From Candidatus Segetimicrobium genomatis (GTDB taxonomy: Bacteria > Sysuimicrobiota > Sysuimicrobiia > Sysuimicrobiales > Kaftiobacteriaceae), in assembly GCA_005882335.1 (NCBI GenBank), contig VBAP01000005.1, forward strand, positions 53,217 to 75,583: 22,367 nucleotides of DNA, given 5' to 3'. Under the pieces are notes generated by a model that saw nothing but the letters and a program-made list of their open reading frames with translations, was not told where the DNA came from and made no database searches. A program made the position numbers and the translations under genes. Shown piece after piece: positions 3,419 to 21,479 of the stretch (position 1 is its first letter; every line of letters begins with the position of its first letter).

Positions 3419-4563
3419 CGCTCCATCGCCTCGATCACGGCGTCGTGGAACTGTGCTCGAAATGATTCGATGGCCGTGGTGGTGGCGCGGGGGTGCACGC
3501 GGTTCGTCAGCAGGACCACCACCAATGCCCGCGGCGGGTCGACCAGCAGTGAGGTGCCGGTGAACCCCGTATGTCCGAATGCGGCGGGGGAGGCGCGAAC
3601 TCCCATGAAGGCGCTACCGCGCCGGCAGCGCCAGCCCAGCCCCCGGGCGTCCTCGAGCCCCCCAGTATGATCCCGGGTCGCTTCGGCCACGGTGGTCTGG
3701 GCCAACACCGCGCCGTGTGGTGCGGCCCCGCCATCCAACATCACCTGCCCGAAGCGGCCGACGTCCTCAGCAGTGGAAAAGAGTCCGGCATGCCCTGCGA
3801 CGCCGTGATACAGATAGTAACTGTTCCCGTCGTGCACCTCACCGCAGATGACGCGGGTGCGCCAGCGGAAACCGACGCCTTCCTCGCCGGCCGCGGCGCG
3901 CTCGAATTCGTTGCCTGCTTCCGTGGCCACACAACGCGACCGCCAGGCCGCCGGCGGCCGGAACCGCGTGCGCCGCCATCCCACCAGTGGCGCGATCCGG
4001 GCATCGAGATGGTCGTCGAGCGGCAGTCCTCCGCGGGCGCGGACGAGTTCACCCAGCACGATGAATCCCAGATCGCTGTACTCCACACGCGCTCCCGGCG
4101 GAGATTGCGGCGGAAACGCGCCGATGTGCCGCAGCGCGTCGGCCGGGGTGTGCGCATGCAGGTACAACCGGATCCACGCGGGCAGCCCGGACGTGTGTGT
4201 GAGCAGATGCCGCACCGTCACCGCCTGCTTGCCTGCGGCGCCAAAGACCGGCAGGTAGTCCGCCACCGGGCGATCGAGATCGAGAGCTTTCTGCTCCCAC
4301 AGCTGCAGTACTGCGGTGGCCGTGGCGATGGGTTTGGTCAGCGATGCGAGGTCAAACACGGCATCCGGCCGCATTGCGCGCCGCCTCGGAGTGACGGCCG
4401 CCCATCCGAAGGCCTGCTGCCACTCGATGCGATGTTCACGGCGGACGTGCACGACCGCCCCAGGAAATATCCCGGCCGCCAGGGCCTGCTCCACGAGCCG
4501 CCGGACCGGCGCGAGCTGCGCCGAGTGAAACGGCACGCGCGCGGCCGACGGCATAGGCCTCAT
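3415..4563 (-). CDS. Beta-lactamase/transpeptidase-fold serine hydrolase (AmpH/esterase-like). The likely start is ATG at 4561-4563 (MRPMPSAARV...). The long N-terminal extension in the track ORF, up to 5052, overlaps htrA and is probably not translated.
   Basis: It has the S-x-x-K active-site motif (ASLTKP) and class-C/AmpH-like downstream motifs. Its stop overlaps the murQ start by 4 nt. Confidence 0.7.
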   Translation of the reverse strand: MRPMPSAARVPFHSAQLAPVRRLVEQALAAGIFPGAVVHVRREHRIEWQQAFGWAAVTPRRRAMRPDAVFDLASLTKPIATATAVLQLWEQKALDLDRPVADYLPVFGAAGKQAVTVRHLLTHTSGLPAWIRLYLHAHTPADALRHIGAFPPQSPPGARVEYSDLGFIVLGELVRARGGLPLDDHLDARIAPLVGWRRTRFRPPAAWRSRCVATEAGNEFERAAAGEEGVGFRWRTRVICGEVHDGNSYYLYHGVAGHAGLFSTAEDVGRFGQVMLDGGAAPHGAVLAQTTVAEATRDHTGGLEDARGLGWRCRRGSAFMGVRASPAAFGHTGFTGTSLLVDPPRALVVVLLTNRVHPRATTTAIESFRAQFHDAVIEAMER

Positions 4564-15592: not shown

Positions 15593-17392
15593 GTGACGGC
15601 ACGGAAGCCTGCCGCGCCGCCGGACAACGAGGAGCGTCCAGACTACTTCGCATTGCTGCGCGACCGCTACGATCTCACCGCGGTCCCCTTTACCGACCGC
15701 GCCAGCCGGTTGTTGCTGTTTCTGGATCCAGATCGAAAAGCGTTCCACGTCCGCGTCTCCGAACGATGGCCGCGGCTGGACTACGTGGAAGGCGACTACC
15801 GTACCCGCCGGCCGATCGTGCGCGATCTGCGTCCCACCGACGGCGACGGCCGGCCGCTGCCCTTCACCCTGACCAGCTTTCCGCACCGCGTCGAATTGGT
15901 CACCGAGCACGGGCCGTTTGCGATGGTCTTCGCCGACCCCGAGGTGTTGCTGATCACCGTGCCTCCAGGCCGTGTGGGGGTGCAGTGTCTGGTCCGCGCC
16001 GAACACGGCGCCGCGGACCGGCGAGGGGCGCACTTCCGAGGGGTGCGCAACGTGGCCCTGACTACGAATGCGCGCCTGCTCAGCAACGCAGTTGAACCGC
16101 AGGGCGTGCACTATCGTGTCGACCTGCGTGTGGACGCCGGGACGGACGCGGCGGTCTCGCTGAACATCACCCCGCGGCTGGGATTCAATCGCGGCCTGCA
16201 CCCGCAGGCGGCGCTCGCTGAGAGCGAGCACCAATGGCGGCGCTGGTTCGAGGCGGCCCCGCCGGTCCATTCCAGGTACCACCTCCCCTACTACTATGCC
16301 TGGTGGATCATGCGCGCCGGCCTGGTCAGCTCGCGATATTACCTAACCCGCGAAGCGATGGTCCCGTCCAAGGTCCGCTACGTGGGCGTGTGGCAGTGGG
16401 ACGCATTCTTTCACGCGCTGGCCTACCGCTACGTCGACCTCAGACTCGCCAGCGACCAGTTTCGCATCTTCATCGACCATCAACGCCCCGACGGGATGCT
16501 GCCCGACGCCGTCTACGATGAGGGGGTAATTGACCACCTGGCGTATCCCGTGGACGCGCCGGTCACCAAGCCGCCGATGGCGGCCTGGGCCGCATGGAAG
16601 GTCTACCAGACCACCGGGGATCTGGACTTCCTGGCGGAGATCTACGCCCCGCTGGTGCGGTGGAACGAGTGGTGGTTCACACACGCCGACGACGACCGCG
16701 ACGGCATCGCCCAGTATTCGCATCCCTTCTCGTCCGGTTTCGACGACAGCCCGCTGTGGGACGCCGGGATGCCGGTGGAGTCACCGGATCTCTCGACGTA
16801 CCTGTGCCTGCACATGGAGGCGCTGGCCGGGATGGCCGAGGCGCTCGGGGAAACCGAGGACGCTGTGAGATTCCGCGCCCGCGCCGACGACCTGGTCCCG
16901 CGGATGATCGAGCATTTCTATGATCCGCAGGCCGGGGTGTTTTGGGCCATGCGGCCGACCGACCAGGGGCACCGCCGCGTGGAGGTGCTCACCTCACTCA
17001 ACCTGTTCCCGCTGTGGACCGGCCGCCTGCCGCCCGCCGTGGCCCAGCGACTGGTGGATCATCTCACGAATCCGGAGGCGTTTTGGACGCGCTTTCCGAT
17101 CCCCAGCGTGGCCCGCAGTGATCCCGCGTTCAACCCCACCCAGATGTGGAGGGGCCCGGTCTGGGTCAACATCAATTACCTGTTTGTGGAGGCGTTGCAG
17201 CGGGCTGGATTTCCCGACCTGGCGCGGCAACTGTGTGACTCCACCCTGGACCTCGTCGCCGGGTCCGCCGACATGCGGGAATACTACCATCCCGAAACGG
17301 GACAGCCACCACCGCAGGCCGCACCCTGCCAGGGGTGGACCGCGGCCTGCTTTATCGATCTGGCGATCCGCCGCTCACGGGGGGAGGTGTAG
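15593..17392 (+). CDS. (alpha/alpha)6-barrel glycoside hydrolase, GH63-like. Candidate mannosylglycerate/glucosylglycerate-hydrolase-type enzyme (GTG start).
   Basis: 599 aa. The central region (GVWQWDAFFHALAY..., AWKVYQTTGDLDFLAEIYAPLVRWNEWW, SGFDDSPLWD) is typical of six-hairpin glycosidases. The exact family cannot be fixed without a search. Confidence 0.75.
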   Translation: MTARKPAAPPDNEERPDYFALLRDRYDLTAVPFTDRASRLLLFLDPDRKAFHVRVSERWPRLDYVEGDYRTRRPIVRDLRPTDGDGRPLPFTLTSFPHRVELVTEHGPFAMVFADPEVLLITVPPGRVGVQCLVRAEHGAADRRGAHFRGVRNVALTTNARLLSNAVEPQGVHYRVDLRVDAGTDAAVSLNITPRLGFNRGLHPQAALAESEHQWRRWFEAAPPVHSRYHLPYYYAWWIMRAGLVSSRYYLTREAMVPSKVRYVGVWQWDAFFHALAYRYVDLRLASDQFRIFIDHQRPDGMLPDAVYDEGVIDHLAYPVDAPVTKPPMAAWAAWKVYQTTGDLDFLAEIYAPLVRWNEWWFTHADDDRDGIAQYSHPFSSGFDDSPLWDAGMPVESPDLSTYLCLHMEALAGMAEALGETEDAVRFRARADDLVPRMIEHFYDPQAGVFWAMRPTDQGHRRVEVLTSLNLFPLWTGRLPPAVAQRLVDHLTNPEAFWTRFPIPSVARSDPAFNPTQMWRGPVWVNINYLFVEALQRAGFPDLARQLCDSTLDLVAGSADMREYYHPETGQPPPQAAPCQGWTAACFIDLAIRRSRGEV

Positions 17393-17395
17393 GCC

Positions 17396-17935
17396 GTGAG
17401 CTCCGATCAACTCGCGCGCCTGCGCGAGGCCGTGCAGGGGCTGGAGAATATCATCGCCATCGTGCTGATTCTCCTCGGCGCCGCCGTGGTGCTCCGGCTG
17501 TCGGTGTTGCTCATTCGCCGGACGCTCCTGGCCCGCACCGACCGGCTGCTAGACGAGACCCGGCGCCGTACGCTGCAGCCGCTCCTGGAGAGCCTGGTGA
17601 AGTACGTCGTGTACTTCATCGCCCTGGTCATGATTTTGCGCGAGTTGAACGTCGATGCTACCGCGATCCTGGCCAGCGCGGGCGCCGTGGGCCTGGCGGT
17701 GGGCCTTGGGGCCCAGAGCCTGATGCGGGACGTCATCGCCGGCTTCTTCCTCATCACCGAAGGCCTCATCCACGTCGGCGATGTTATTACGTTCGACGGT
17801 CACACCGGCACCGTCGAGCGCATCAGCATCCGCAAGACGCAAATCCGCACGGCCGGCGGAGAACTCTGGACGATCCCCAACGGGAAACTCGAGGTGTTCG
17901 GGAACAAAGGTCCAACCTCAGGAGCGTCTCGGTGA
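17396..17935 (+). CDS. MscS-family mechanosensitive channel homologue, C-terminally truncated at 179 aa (GTG start, 3 nt after the hydrolase stop).
   Basis: Three transmembrane helices followed by the conserved MscS core (LMRDVIAGFFLITEGLIHVGDVITFDGHTGTVERISIRKTQIRTAGGELWTIPNGK). The ORF stops ~20 aa later. The ~80-100-aa cytoplasmic vestibule domain is absent in all frames. Confidence 0.7.
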   Translation: MSSDQLARLREAVQGLENIIAIVLILLGAAVVLRLSVLLIRRTLLARTDRLLDETRRRTLQPLLESLVKYVVYFIALVMILRELNVDATAILASAGAVGLAVGLGAQSLMRDVIAGFFLITEGLIHVGDVITFDGHTGTVERISIRKTQIRTAGGELWTIPNGKLEVFGNKGPTSGASR

Positions 17936-18012
17936 AGGCTTCGGGTAAGACGAACGCGTGGAGAAGGGGAGCAAATCAGCTGGTCGAACCAGACTGCGTA
18001 GCAGGTCAGCTC

Positions 18013-18958
18013 ATGAGAATCCGCAACCTTAAACATTTCTATCCGGCGCTGAGTCTGCTGTTATTCTTAGTCGTGTTCACAACGGCGTGCGACATAGTTT
18101 CGTCGCCTGGGGCTTTCGACTCTCCGTTGTACGTGGCCAACTCCGGCGGCGACAGCATCACCATCTACGCCCCCTTCTCTAATGGCCCCGCCGCTCCTAT
18201 CCGCACTATCAGCGGGCTCACGAGTCCGTCCGGTGTGGCCGTGAACGCCGCGGGGGAAACCTTTGTCGCCAACTCCAGCACTAACAGCATCACAGTGTAC
18301 AGCCTTGGCGCCAACGGCAACGCCGCGCCCATCCGCACAATCAGCGGGCTTCTCACCCAGCTCGACAACCCCCAGGGGATCGCTCTGGATGCCGCCGGCA
18401 ACCTGTATGTCGCCAACGTCGGAACCACCACGCCCCCCACTCCCACCCCCAGTAGCATCACTGTCTACGGCCCTACCGCTACGAACAACGCCGCCCCTAT
18501 CAACAAGATCAGCGGAGCCAGTACCGGGCTCGACCACCCCCAGGGAGTACAGCATCACTGTCTACGGTCCAACCGCGACAGGCAACGCTCCCCCCATCCG
18601 AACCATCAGCGGGGCCAGTACCGGGCTCGCCAACCCTATTGGCGTGGGCCTGGATACCACCGTCAACCTCTATGTCGCTAATGCCGGCGGTACCACCAGC
18701 AGCATCACTGTCTACGCCCCTGGGATCAACGGCGACATGCCCCCTACCCGCACAATCAGTGGAACACTAACCGGGCTCGCCAGCCCACAGGGCGTGGTCC
18801 TCGATCCCACCGGGAGGCTCTACGTCGCTAACAACGGCACCCCACCCAGCATCACCGTGTACACCCCAGGCGCCATGAACAATGCTATCCCCATCCGCAC
18901 CATTACCGGGAGCGCCACTGGGCTCAGTCAGCCACTTTTCATTGCCCTCCGCCCTTAG
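18013..18958 (+). pseudogene. Beta-propeller-repeat lipoprotein (YVTN/NHL-like '...LYVAN.G..SITVY...PIRTISG' blades) with a lipoprotein-type signal peptide (MRIRNLKHFYPALSLLLFLVVFTTAC). The reading frame shifts by +1 at ~18544-18547, in a C5/G3 homopolymer context. The repeat blade at the junction is also about half-length.
   Basis: N-terminal 177 codons are in the frame of track ORF 17335..18681. C-terminal ~137 codons are in the frame of ORF 18263..18958. Both read as the same ~46-aa repeat family. 18013..18958 is 946 nt, which is 3n+1. Confidence 0.6.
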
Positions 18959-19011: not shown

Positions 19012-19929
19012 GTGAAGATCCTGGTCACCGGCGGCGCCGGATTCATCGGTTCCCATGTGGTCGATGCCTATGTGGGCGCCGGGCACCAGATCGTGGTTGT
19101 CGACAATCTGACCACCGGCCGCCGGGAGCGCGTCAATCCCGCCGCGCAATTGTACGCAATCGACATCCGCAGTCCGGAGTTGCGCGACGTGTTCGAGCGC
19201 GAGCGCCCGGAAGTAGTCAATCACCACGCGGCGCAGGCGTCCGTGACGGCCTCGGTGGCCGATCCCCGCGTTGATGCCGAGATCAACGTGATGGGCACAC
19301 TGCATCTGCTGACGCTGTGTGCCCAATCTCGCGTCCGTCGCTTCGTCTTCGCCTCCACAGGCGGGGCGATCTATGGCAACCCGCAGCGCATCCCCGCAGA
19401 TGAGCAGCATCCCACGACGCCATTATCGCCGTATGGCATCCACAAGCTGGTCGGGGAGCACTATGTCCGCTACTTCGGATCAACGGGGATGACCTGGGCC
19501 ATCCTCCGCTACGCCAATGTGTACGGACCGCGGCAGGATCCGTTCGGCGAGGCCGGCGTGGTCGCCATCTTTACCCGGGCCATGCTGGACGGCAAAGCAC
19601 CGACCATCTTCGGGGACGGCAAGCAGACGCGGGACTTCGTGTACGTTGAGGACGTCGCCCGCGCCAATCTCCTGGCGACGGACGCAACGACGTCCGACCT
19701 GGCCAACATCGGCACCGGCGTGGAGACCTCGGTGAACGACATTGCCCGCCATCTCGCTTCCCTCACCGGCTTCCGGGGCGAACCCTTGCGCGTGGCCCCC
19801 CGCCTCGGTGAGGTGTATCGCATCGCACTAGACGCGTCGAAGGCGAAGCGCTGGCTGAGCTGGGGCCCGCAGACGTCCCTGATGGACGGTCTGCGAAAGA
19901 CCGCAGAGTGGTTCCAGAGTACTCGCTGA
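19012..19929 (+). CDS. NAD-dependent epimerase/dehydratase, extended SDR, UDP-glucose 4-epimerase-like (GTG start).
   Basis: Rossmann motif GGAGFIGSH and active-site YGIHK (Y-x3-K). 305 aa. Confidence 0.88.
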   Translation: MKILVTGGAGFIGSHVVDAYVGAGHQIVVVDNLTTGRRERVNPAAQLYAIDIRSPELRDVFERERPEVVNHHAAQASVTASVADPRVDAEINVMGTLHLLTLCAQSRVRRFVFASTGGAIYGNPQRIPADEQHPTTPLSPYGIHKLVGEHYVRYFGSTGMTWAILRYANVYGPRQDPFGEAGVVAIFTRAMLDGKAPTIFGDGKQTRDFVYVEDVARANLLATDATTSDLANIGTGVETSVNDIARHLASLTGFRGEPLRVAPRLGEVYRIALDASKAKRWLSWGPQTSLMDGLRKTAEWFQSTR

Positions 19930-19932
19930 GCC

Positions 19933-19960
19933 GTGATAAAGTCTGACTTGATACTATAAT
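19933..19960 (+). promoter_or_regulatory. AT-rich sigma-70-like promoter: GTGATA (-35), a 16-nt spacer and a perfect TATAAT at 19955-19960. The TATAAT is 6 nt upstream of the GTG at 19967, so the transcript is likely leaderless.
   Basis: Direct reading. The sequence 'ccgtgataaagtctgacttgatactataatcgaggc gtg' stands out in a high-GC background. Confidence 0.45.
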
Positions 19961-19966
19961 CGAGGC

Positions 19967-20239
19967 GTGGAAAGCAAACTGCTGCCAGGGCAGAATCTGA
20001 TCGAAACGGGTTTGCGGGACCTGGAGCGCGGCCGGGAGTCTGTCCCCGCACTGCTGGTTTCCGTTGGCGCGCCCCGCCTGCGGCGGTTGGGTTTTCGCAT
20101 CCCCCACGCCATCGTGTCCCCTGAGCGCCGCCTGTATGATTTCCTCGCCCGTGACGACTCTGACGCCGCGCACTCACGGTACAACGCGCTGATCCGGCGA
20201 CTCGTGAGCTTCGAACGGGCGGCGGAATGCGCGAGATAG
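19967..20239 (+). CDS. Small hypothetical protein (90 aa), the first gene of a two-gene cassette. It overlaps the downstream gene by 13 nt. It contains an R-x6-H segment (RLGFRIPH) and has no recognisable domain.
   Basis: ORF with GC-rich third positions starting right after the promoter. Its overlap with the next ORF is typical of coupled toxin-antitoxin-like pairs. Confidence 0.45.
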   Translation: MESKLLPGQNLIETGLRDLERGRESVPALLVSVGAPRLRRLGFRIPHAIVSPERRLYDFLARDDSDAAHSRYNALIRRLVSFERAAECAR

Positions 20240-20748
20240 CCGACTCGGATCGCATCCGCCGCTTTATGACTCACCTCGGTGCAGAAGCCGACGCCGAGAC
20301 CCGAGTGTACTTCACAGGAGGGGCGACCGCCGTCCTGCTCGGCTGGCGCCAGAGCACGATTGACGTCGACATCCTCATTGTTCCAGAGAACGATCGCTTG
20401 CTTCGGGCGATCCCGCGGCTGAAGGAAGAGCTCCGAATCAACGTCGAGCTGGCCTCGCCCCAAGACTTCATCCCGGTGCCGCCGGGCTGGGAAAGCCGGA
20501 GCCTGTTCATCGGCAGCGCGGGCAAGATCGCATTCTATCATTTTGACCCGTACGCACAGGCGGTGGCAAAGATCGAGCGCAGCCACGAGCAGGACCTGGA
20601 AGACGTCCAGGCGCTGATCCGGACCGGTTTGGTTGATCGGCGGCGCGCTCTGGAATACTTCCAGCGAATCGAACCGGAACTATATCGTTATCCTGCAATT
20701 GACCCGCGCTCATTCCGGCGGGCGGTGGAAGAAACCTTCCGAGTATGA
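20227..20748 (+). CDS. Minimal nucleotidyltransferase-fold protein (Pol-beta superfamily) with a C-terminal ~80-aa helical extension. 173 aa.
   Basis: Signature FTGGATAVLLGWRQSTIDVDILIV, that is, hG[GS]...x9-13...[ST]xDhDhhh. Followed by a beta-strand/helix segment (RINVELASPQD) typical of NTase cores. Confidence 0.65.
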   Translation: MREIADSDRIRRFMTHLGAEADAETRVYFTGGATAVLLGWRQSTIDVDILIVPENDRLLRAIPRLKEELRINVELASPQDFIPVPPGWESRSLFIGSAGKIAFYHFDPYAQAVAKIERSHEQDLEDVQALIRTGLVDRRRALEYFQRIEPELYRYPAIDPRSFRRAVEETFRV

Positions 20749-20983
20749 TTCCACAAGGCGTCGCGTTGATACGGCTGCTCTATGCAACCGGAAGGGAGGC
20801 GACCCGAATACCGCTACCCACGGGCAGTTCCCGACTAAGAACTGAAGCCACCTGAACCTCCCCAGAACCTGAAAGACCTCCTCGAAGGATCTTCGTTGAC
20901 AGGCTCGGATCGCCATTGCGAGATCCGGCATTCGCGCATTCGTGCGAATACGCGAATGGACTAGGAGTTTACTGTTTGGACGC

Positions 20984-21349
20984 AGCGGGCCATGCTGGAC
21001 GGCAAGGCGCCGACCATTTTCGGGGATGGGAAGCAAACGCGGGACTTCGTGTATGTCGAGGACGTCGCCCGCGCCAACCTGCTGGCGACGACAGCTCCAA
21101 CCTCCGATATGGCAAATATCGGCACCGGAACCGAGACGGCAATCAATGATCTGTACCGACACCTCGCCCAGTTGACCGGATTTGGCGCACAACCCGTATA
21201 TGCGTCCAAGCGGCCCGGTGAAGTCGACCGGATTGCGCTGGATCCCACGCGGGCCGCACGCTGGTTGCAGTGGAAGCCCGCAGACACCTCTGCTCGAAGG
21301 TCTACGCCGAACCGTTCAGGCATTTCAGCGCACGCAATCCCCACGGTAA
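20984..21349 (+). pseudogene. 5'-truncated, frameshifted remnant of a paralogue of the epimerase gene at 19012-19929. It matches the epimerase from codon ~189 to the end. The translation MLDGKAPTIFGDGKQTRDFVYVEDVARANLLAT is identical, and DNA identity is about 90%, with differences mostly at third positions. A 1-nt insertion near 21285 shifts the frame; the alternative frame then reads QTPLLEGLRRTVQAFQ, which parallels QTSLMDGLRKTAEWFQ.
   Basis: Direct comparison of 19574-19929 with 20984-21349. There is no homologous 5' half upstream of 20984. Confidence 0.8.
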
Positions 21350-21479
21350 CGCGCGCCATTGTCTCCCGATCCTCTCCCCGCTGCTGACTCCTCAAACCGA
21401 TCGATCTGCCGGAGAGGGGGTTCGGGGATCGCGATTGAACAGATAAATGGCTCTGTACTTTCAGATCGGGGGGCGTGAC

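Follow-up and report, generated by a model that had tools for sequence, protein, structure and literature searches.

We analyzed a two-gene cassette in a 22,367-nucleotide (nt) stretch of contig VBAP01000005.1 of Candidatus Segetimicrobium genomatis (the window) and established that it is an autonomous, translationally coupled module that is widely spread among bacteria. Its first gene, open reading frame A (ORF-A), encodes a small five-helix protein that belongs to no described family; the second, ORF-B, encodes what its sequence and predicted structure indicate to be an apparently active nucleotidyltransferase (NTase) of the DUF6036 family. The reading that we place first, at slightly under an even chance, is that the pair is a MenAT-like toxin–antitoxin module with a new partner family, a proposal made by analogy with characterized NTase toxins. 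An initial annotation, drawn from the letters of the window, had put forward the pair as a candidate toxin–antitoxin or defence-like module, and the two overlapping ORFs that it described on the plus strand were confirmed (Table 1).

The evidence for a conserved module comes from linkage. Relatives of ORF-B were collected from genomes, one per species, and occurred in at least 589 of them; the 80 best matches were analyzed as loci. These belong to Armatimonadota, Actinomycetota (Gaiellales, Solirubrobacterales), Acidobacteriota, Gemmatimonadota, NC10, Elusimicrobiota, Planctomycetia, Chloroflexota, and Gamma- and Deltaproteobacteria. An ORF-A homologue lay directly 5' of ORF-B in all 80 loci, from at least ten phyla, so that the co-occurrence that the initial annotation had asked to be checked was found throughout. 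The two genes overlapped by exactly 13 nt in 72 of the 79 scorable loci, in agreement with the translational coupling read from the window copy. Near-equal family sizes (6918 homologous clusters for ORF-A and 6022 for ORF-B) were accompanied by a correlation between the pairwise identities of the two proteins (r = 0.55). Identity of the pair was about 66% within phyla and about 61% between them, and several nearest neighbours crossed phylum boundaries. The taxa carrying the pair are mainly from soil and crust and include cyanobacteria.

The cyanobacterial sequences form a divergent clade of 421 clusters from Leptolyngbya, Scytonema, Pseudanabaena, Nostoc and Microcoleus. Gene order was reversed in all four of the loci examined, with the NTase first and the small protein second, the genes abutting or overlapping by 1–4 nt. 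Profile comparison showed that the cyanobacterial small protein is homologous to ORF-A (probability 98.7%, E 4e-16). That the two genes stay linked although their order has changed strongly points to a functional, and probably physical, partnership. Duplicated and decayed copies were also observed: a tandem duplicate of the pair (L090), a metagenome-assembled genome that holds two copies (L085/L086) and, in a member of the Solirubrobacterales, a second copy, decayed and frameshifted, that lies 1.5 kb upstream of an intact pair (L048, ~4270–4560). In L023, L036 and L080, what looked like additional copies of ORF-A proved to be clustering artefacts. The pair has the generic layout of a type II-like toxin–antitoxin system, namely two small, adjacent, co-oriented and linked genes in variable contexts and distant taxa.

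The expression design of the cassette is conserved as well. A consensus scan of 1.4 kb found GTGATA and TATAAT, 16 nt apart (19933–19960; 10 of 12 consensus positions), as the sole plus-strand match, and 2 matches on both strands together against 0.3 expected; this is the promoter that the initial annotation had proposed. Because TATAAT ends 6 nt before the GTG codon of ORF-A, the predicted transcription start falls on this codon or next to it. Upstream regions of the homologous loci were aligned on predicted ORF-A start codons, and offsets from −50 to +30 were scanned for TANNNT. The hexamer ended 6–8 nt 5' of the ORF-A start in 56 of 76 loci and occurred almost nowhere else, in keeping with the leaderless start suggested earlier. 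Across loci, the position-specific profile consisted of G-n-TA-t-n-n-T alone, with neither a −35 nor any other conserved element. L092, a locus with an 86%-identical homologue of the window copy, had a different upstream flank and the same TATAAT-N6-GTG. The palindrome AAGTCTGACTT in the window promoter spacer was considered as a conserved element and rejected, as it was not kept in the 86%-identical homologue. Since the −10 placement recurs, also across differing flanks, the leaderless design is a conserved property of the module in the clade with ORF-A first; the cyanobacterial loci had no −10 element abutting the first start codon. In Mycobacterium tuberculosis, a primary start site has been mapped for 37 toxin–antitoxin operons, of which 32 are leaderless (PMC3898074). 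The best explanation is that the module has passed between bacterial phyla and carried its own minimal promoter with it. A −10 element at the start codon and a fixed 13-nt overlap, conserved across phyla, may explain how it functions after transfer between distant bacteria.

ORF-B matched Pfam DUF6036 (PF19502, 'nucleotidyltransferase of unknown function') with 38.2 bits against a gathering cut-off of 23.6, a check that the initial annotation had suggested and that upheld its assignment to the Pol-beta-type NTases. All 40 members of the ORF-B family matched DUF6036, and homologues carry the label 'DUF6036 family nucleotidyltransferase' in their sources. No match to ORF-B was found in NCBIfam or PADLOC. 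The best PHROG matches of ORF-B (E 0.08) and of the Leptolyngbya NTase (E 0.0068) were not significant; both covered 27 residues of a family without a known function. In an alignment (A2) with 40 relatives of 67–87% identity, residues G31, G32, R41, T44, D46, D48, E74, K115, E117, R118, H120, D123 and D126 were invariant. The AlphaFold model (predicted local distance difference test, pLDDT, 90.9) contains an alpha-beta-alpha-beta Pol-beta core followed by a four-helix C-terminal domain, as the initial annotation had expected. ORF-B combines the elements that define the Pol-beta superfamily: an hG[GS]-x9-13-DhD motif, the alpha-beta-alpha-beta core and a likely third carboxylate, E74, on a neighbouring strand. 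The NTase signature reported earlier is present, with a correction of its spacing: 13 residues separate G31-G32 from D46, and only 10 lie between the glycines and S43.

Structure comparison placed ORF-B closest to MenT1 of M. tuberculosis, the toxin of a toxin–antitoxin system (score 9.4; 147 residues aligned, 18% identity; chain of 195 amino acids, aa), which is in line with the toxin–antitoxin likeness noted at the outset. LnuA (8.9; 158 aa), ANT(2'') (8.5; 175 aa), a fungal NTase-like protein (8.4) and TM1012 (8.3; 156 aa) followed, then MenT3/TglT (7.8) and MenT4 (7.5), so that ORF-B resembles the solved MenT toxins in structure; MNT-type minimal NTases scored 3.9–4.5. The earlier argument that a product of 173 aa fits no known class was wrong, because a size class of two-domain NTases of 155–195 aa exists and includes a toxin. 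At the level of sequence, the ORF-B profile matched no PDB chain. The sole secondary Pfam signal in the family was AbiEii (PF08843), sub-threshold in 4 of 40 members (best E 0.016). ORF-B gave no signal for the aminoglycoside or lincosamide NTase families of Pfam and NCBIfam, even at E up to 10.

All four motifs of AbiEii/MenT toxins have invariant counterparts in ORF-B, with different spacings, in a comparison made by eye and not by profile alignment. The AbiEii/DUF1814 proteins are described by an arginine in motif II with x15 spacing, a motif III whose lysine is set among hydrophobic residues (KLxAaxxR) and a family-specific +DxxD pentad as motif IV (PMC3985639). ORF-B shares the hGG...R..[ST].DhD pattern, a C-terminal lysine motif and DxxD with the toxins of AbiE, MenAT3 and MenAT4, which are AbiEii-DUF1814 proteins with COG5340 AbiEi antitoxins and are likewise encoded in bicistronic operons with the partner gene first. 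These toxins are about 290 aa long, whereas ORF-B has 173 aa; the spacing from GG to Asp is 15 in AbiEii and 13 in ORF-B, the arginine is at −4 in the former and −5 in the latter, motif III is KLxAaxxR in AbiEii and K-x2-R in ORF-B, and the residue before DxxD is usually Q in ORF-B rather than a basic one. ORF-A, for its part, is not an AbiEi/COG5340 winged-helix protein, and the phage-defence context of AbiE is not seen here.

The closest parallel is MenAT1 (MenT1 Rv0078A and MenA1 Rv0078B of M. tuberculosis), in which a short Pol-beta NTase likewise directly follows a small gene (68 aa). The active-site residues of MenT1 are T39, D41, K137 and D152 (PMC10435456). A threonine stands two residues before the catalytic aspartate in both proteins (T39/D41 in MenT1, T44/D46 in ORF-B), and both have a lysine and an aspartate in the C-terminal helical domain (K137/D152 and K115/D123-D126, respectively). 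MenA1 also resembles ORF-A in having no DNA-binding domain detectable by sequence. Besides the sequence identity of only 18%, the systems differ in that ORF-B belongs to DUF6036 and not DUF1814, and in the partner: MenA1 forms a V-shaped peptide of two helices whose tail is disordered, whereas ORF-A is a compact five-helix protein. Homology of ORF-A to MenA1 or AbiEi (COG5340) was tested and not found. Reported menA1 homologues are few (21; PMC10435456), whereas the present pair comprises thousands of clusters from many phyla.

ORF-A matched nothing in Pfam, NCBIfam, PADLOC or PHROGs and showed no similarity to any PDB chain. Its relatives form the 6918 clusters (at 90% identity) given above, of conserved length; an exhaustive profile search yielded 1536 clusters at 50% identity. 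Among sequences 66–87% identical to the window copy, 23 columns are invariant, and the AlphaFold model has five helices (pLDDT 93.1). These data bear on the suggestion that ORF-A is a chance ORF of G+C-rich DNA or a 5' leader and that only the NTase is functional. G+C-rich DNA does yield many false ORFs in all frames, and homologues of ORF-A are recorded only as 'hypothetical protein'. The suggestion is nevertheless refuted, and its probability is negligible, because the number of homologues, the invariant protein columns, the confidence of the model, the conservation of the gene in a different order in cyanobacteria and the placement of the −10 element at its start codon all mark ORF-A as a real gene, as the initial annotation had supposed.

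The residues of ORF-A were also informative. H69, R71, R77, E83 and R84 do not vary in the main clade, yet the cyanobacterial clade has other residues in their place, which argues against ORF-A as an enzyme with those active-site residues; the substitution pattern fits a co-evolving binding partner better. The R-x6-H segment noted earlier is present in the window copy (R62...H69); R62, however, is variable across homologues, and no HEPN relative was found in Pfam or the PDB, so that a HEPN reading of ORF-A was rejected. This result weighs on a reversal of roles like that of type VII systems, in which ORF-A would be the toxin and ORF-B an antitoxin that nucleotidylates it. The minimal NTase of HepT/MntA acts by AMPylating its helical partner. 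The present pair shares with HepT/MntA (HEPN-MNT) the combination of an NTase with an all-helical protein and tight operon coupling, and in cyanobacteria the NTase gene comes first. An invariant Tyr57, many charged invariants in the main clade and the basic character of window ORF-A (isoelectric point, pI, 10.2) would also suit such a target. Against these points, ORF-A has no conserved Rx4-6H and the pair does not qualify as HEPN-MNT, which combines a HEPN protein bearing that motif with a minimal MNT of about 100–140 aa; the loss of the five residues in cyanobacteria is unexpected for a catalytic toxin; and ORF-A is the smaller, upstream gene in most loci. We consider the reversed arrangement improbable.

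Rare variants of ORF-A were observed. One protein (P0379, 186 aa) has the ORF-A domain after an N-terminal region with weak, sub-threshold winged-helix-like matches, and another (P0329, 174 aa) has an extra C-terminal helical extension without a Pfam match; L081 (3094–3891) is among the loci of rare variants. A single fusion of the two proteins was found (P0373, 259 aa). As it may be a frameshift artefact across the 13-nt overlap, it was not used as evidence of interaction.

The favoured toxin–antitoxin reading leads to a mechanism that can be outlined by analogy. MenT1, MenT3 and MenT4 add nucleotides to the 3' ends of tRNAs (PMC7450476, PMC10435456). MenT antitoxins are structurally unrelated to one another (PMC10435456, PMC11375011), and two of them, MenA1 and MenA3, induce self-phosphorylation of the toxin at a Ser/Thr near the catalytic Asp (PMC11375011). 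In our proposal, transcription would start at or next to the GTG codon of ORF-A and give a leaderless mRNA, and ORF-B would be translated by coupling across the overlap. ORF-B would be an active Pol-beta-type DUF6036 NTase, a compact structural relative of the AbiEii/MenT toxins, and, following MenT1, would most likely add nucleotides to the 3' ends of tRNAs (or other RNA) and thereby arrest translation. ORF-A would most likely bind ORF-B and hold it in an inactive state; it would do so by obstructing the active site or, in the manner of MenA1/MenT1, by causing T44 to be self-phosphorylated. We infer the physical interaction of ORF-A with ORF-B, the toxicity, the RNA target and the mode of neutralization; because toxicity, neutralization and substrate have this status, 'toxin–antitoxin' is a leading inference and not a finding.

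To describe the genomic context, flanking ORFs of 72 non-redundant loci were clustered. No third gene was conserved beside the pair in more than 7 of the 72 loci; apparent neighbour clusters of 24 and 13 loci turned out to be alternate-frame or antisense shadows of the pair itself. Annotated neighbourhoods included SecG/TIM/PGK, ClpC/RadA/CarD/IspDF, metallo-beta-lactamase-fold proteins, CopCD and sugar-nucleotide enzymes, and contexts varied even within Armatimonadota. In five Actinomycetota loci (L033, L036, L043, L080 and L083), the pair adjoined uvrB, on either side and either strand, which is probably a lineage-specific synteny. Genes related to tRNA (a class II aminoacyl-tRNA synthetase, a CCA-adding enzyme and B3_4/tRNA_edit) were seen in the flanks of L094, L099, L100 and L001/L096. 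An enrichment of such neighbours was rejected: synthetase or CCA enzyme recurred in none of the 80 genome loci, and their presence is therefore ascribed to chance.

Several observations weigh against a toxin–antitoxin module. The pair is syntenic within several lineages, usually single-copy and amid housekeeping genes, and the conservation of both proteins, about 61% identity between phyla, is unusually high for a toxin–antitoxin pair. Neither 50,697 phage records nor the IMG/VR contigs contained the pair, and among 72,556 plasmids it occurred only on four non-mobilizable Leptolyngbya replicons of 0.5 Mb and on no mobilizable plasmid. PADLOC had no match for the window pair, and no defence-island location was seen in the examined neighbourhoods, so that the pair does not count among the known anti-phage systems or the CD-NTases. 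The association with defence islands, prophages or plasmids that the initial annotation had raised was thus not borne out, and a phage-defence role is without support from context or defence-system models. The aligned upstream profile held no conserved operator, and ORF-A is folded with confidence rather than partly disordered. For the NTase, the fold match to non-toxic antibiotic NTases almost equals that to MenT1; window ORF-B had no match to PF08843 at E up to 10, leaving the AbiEii threshold unreached; and its spacing between motifs III and IV, 8 residues against ~15–22, is far shorter than in MenT1, MenT3 and AbiEii. A search of the literature library returned no paper mentioning DUF6036.

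Because of the near-equal match to antibiotic NTases, the high conservation, the housekeeping contexts and the absence from mobile elements, a non-toxic two-subunit enzyme is a serious rival, which we regard as somewhat less likely than the toxin–antitoxin reading. Here catalysis would fall to ORF-B, with ORF-A as a second subunit that regulates the enzyme or specifies its substrate, and the enzyme would nucleotidylate a small molecule or macromolecule, for example an antibiotic or metabolite as for LnuA and ANT(2''), in stress, resistance or housekeeping functions exchanged horizontally among soil bacteria. The acidic character of the ORF-B family (median pI 5.65), the prevalence of soil and crust taxa, cyanobacteria included, and a well-folded ORF-A with many conserved charged residues are consistent with this. 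However, the known antibiotic NTases work alone: LnuA, ANT(2'')-Ia and TM1012 are stand-alone enzymes without an obligate partner gene, share 9–14% identity with ORF-B and, for the LnuA and ANT(2'') families, receive no Pfam or NCBIfam signal from it, AbiEii being the sole secondary signal. The presence of DxxD and of an Arg/Thr motif II of the AbiEii/MenT type also speaks against it, as do the variable sites, the duplicated and decayed copies and the leaderless coupled operon, which are typical of toxin–antitoxin cassettes.

A broader form of the enzyme hypothesis, which we hold to be a little less probable again, is that the pair is a new kind of two-subunit NTase, in which the five-helix protein would be an obligate specificity or regulatory subunit, kept for a cellular function and not as a classical toxin–antitoxin system. 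Such a function might be, for example, the conditional nucleotidylation of RNA, protein or a metabolite in soil bacteria. Its spread across more than 10 phyla would be 'plug-and-play', a leaderless promoter with only a −10 element being expressible in any host.

The partner family and the pairing appear to be undescribed, and the NTase half is catalogued but uncharacterized; the predicted fold of ORF-A has no solved relative. If the toxin–antitoxin reading is correct, the pair would represent a large unstudied branch of the AbiE/MenAT superfamily of NTase toxin–antitoxin systems, present in thousands of clusters and at least 589 species-level genomes, with ORF-B as its most compact toxin so far. 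A third unrelated partner acting on the invariant threonine would then test how general induced self-phosphorylation is. If instead the pair is a non-toxic enzyme, it would be a new heteromeric enzyme common in soil microbiomes.

Table 1. Features of the cassette and its surroundings (window positions unless a locus is named)
Feature	Position	Strand	Remarks
−35-like hexamer GTGATA	19933..19938	+	From consensus scan; not conserved in homologous loci
−10 hexamer TATAAT	19955..19960	+	Ends 6 nt 5' of ORF-A GTG; leaderless-type promoter
ORF-A	19967..20239	+	GTG start, 90 aa; five-helix protein of unclassified family; candidate antitoxin/regulator, obligate partner of the NTase
ORF-B	20227..20748	+	ATG start, 173 aa; DUF6036 Pol-beta-type nucleotidyltransferase; candidate toxin/effector
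ORF-A stop/ORF-B start overlap	20227..20239	+	13 nt; translational coupling; same overlap in 72/79 loci
Motif I, G31-G32	20317..20322	+	Invariant; beta1/alpha2 junction in model
Motif II, R41-Q-S-T44-I-D46-V-D48	20347..20370	+	Two-aspartate metal site; Arg, and Thr at −2, as in AbiEii/MenT; R41, T44, D46, D48 invariant; D46/D48 on beta2
E74, likely third carboxylate	20446..20448	+	Invariant; on beta3 (model strand, residues 73–75)
Motif III-like, K115-I-E-R118	20569..20580	+	K115, E117, R118 invariant; compare Lys/Arg of AbiEii motif III, spacing differs
Motif IV-like, D123-L-E-D126 (DxxD)	20593..20604	+	D123, D126 invariant; preceding residue usually Q, not K/R
NAD-dependent epimerase gene, intact	19012..19929	+	Directly 5' of cassette; Pfam PF01370, E 5e-63; context, outside the module
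Spacer, non-coding	20749..20985	.	237 nt, lower G+C; contains a hairpin; downstream edge of rearranged segment
Decayed 3' fragment of epimerase gene	20986..21387	+	Rearrangement scar
Reversed-order cyanobacterial loci	L091 6001-6872; L099 4453-5321; L100 4453-5306; L101 4492-5297		NTase first

The initial annotation had placed the cassette inside an insertion, and this was sustained in part. The epimerase remnant is a 5'-truncated copy of the last third of the gene, with 71% nt identity to 19576–19857 and 74% aa identity to residues 191–286 of the intact gene, followed by a frameshift; a truncated copy at the downstream edge means that the cassette sits in a rearranged site. A site without the cassette was searched for and not found, and no integrase, transposase or other mobile-element gene was present near it; the wider neighbours encode a glycoside hydrolase and an NHL-repeat protein. 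The same remnant arrangement recurs on two metagenome contigs (L007 and L098) and marks an old rearrangement.

Between the ORF-B stop and the remnant lies a near-perfect hairpin (20929–20958) with 14-nt arms, 93% complementary, and a 2-nt loop. It lacks a U-tail, matches nothing in Rfam and may act in place of a terminator or be the scar of a recombination event. The consensus scan found no terminator-like site in the spacer, which as a whole is not unusually structured. No Rfam family or unusual RNA structure was found in or around the cassette. Farther upstream, the NHL-repeat (PF01436) gene (17335–18958) consists of tandem units of ~147–150 nt and is divided between two overlapping frames (17335..18681 and 18263..18958), which suggests a frameshift, unequal recombination between units near 18,540–18,560 or a sequencing error.

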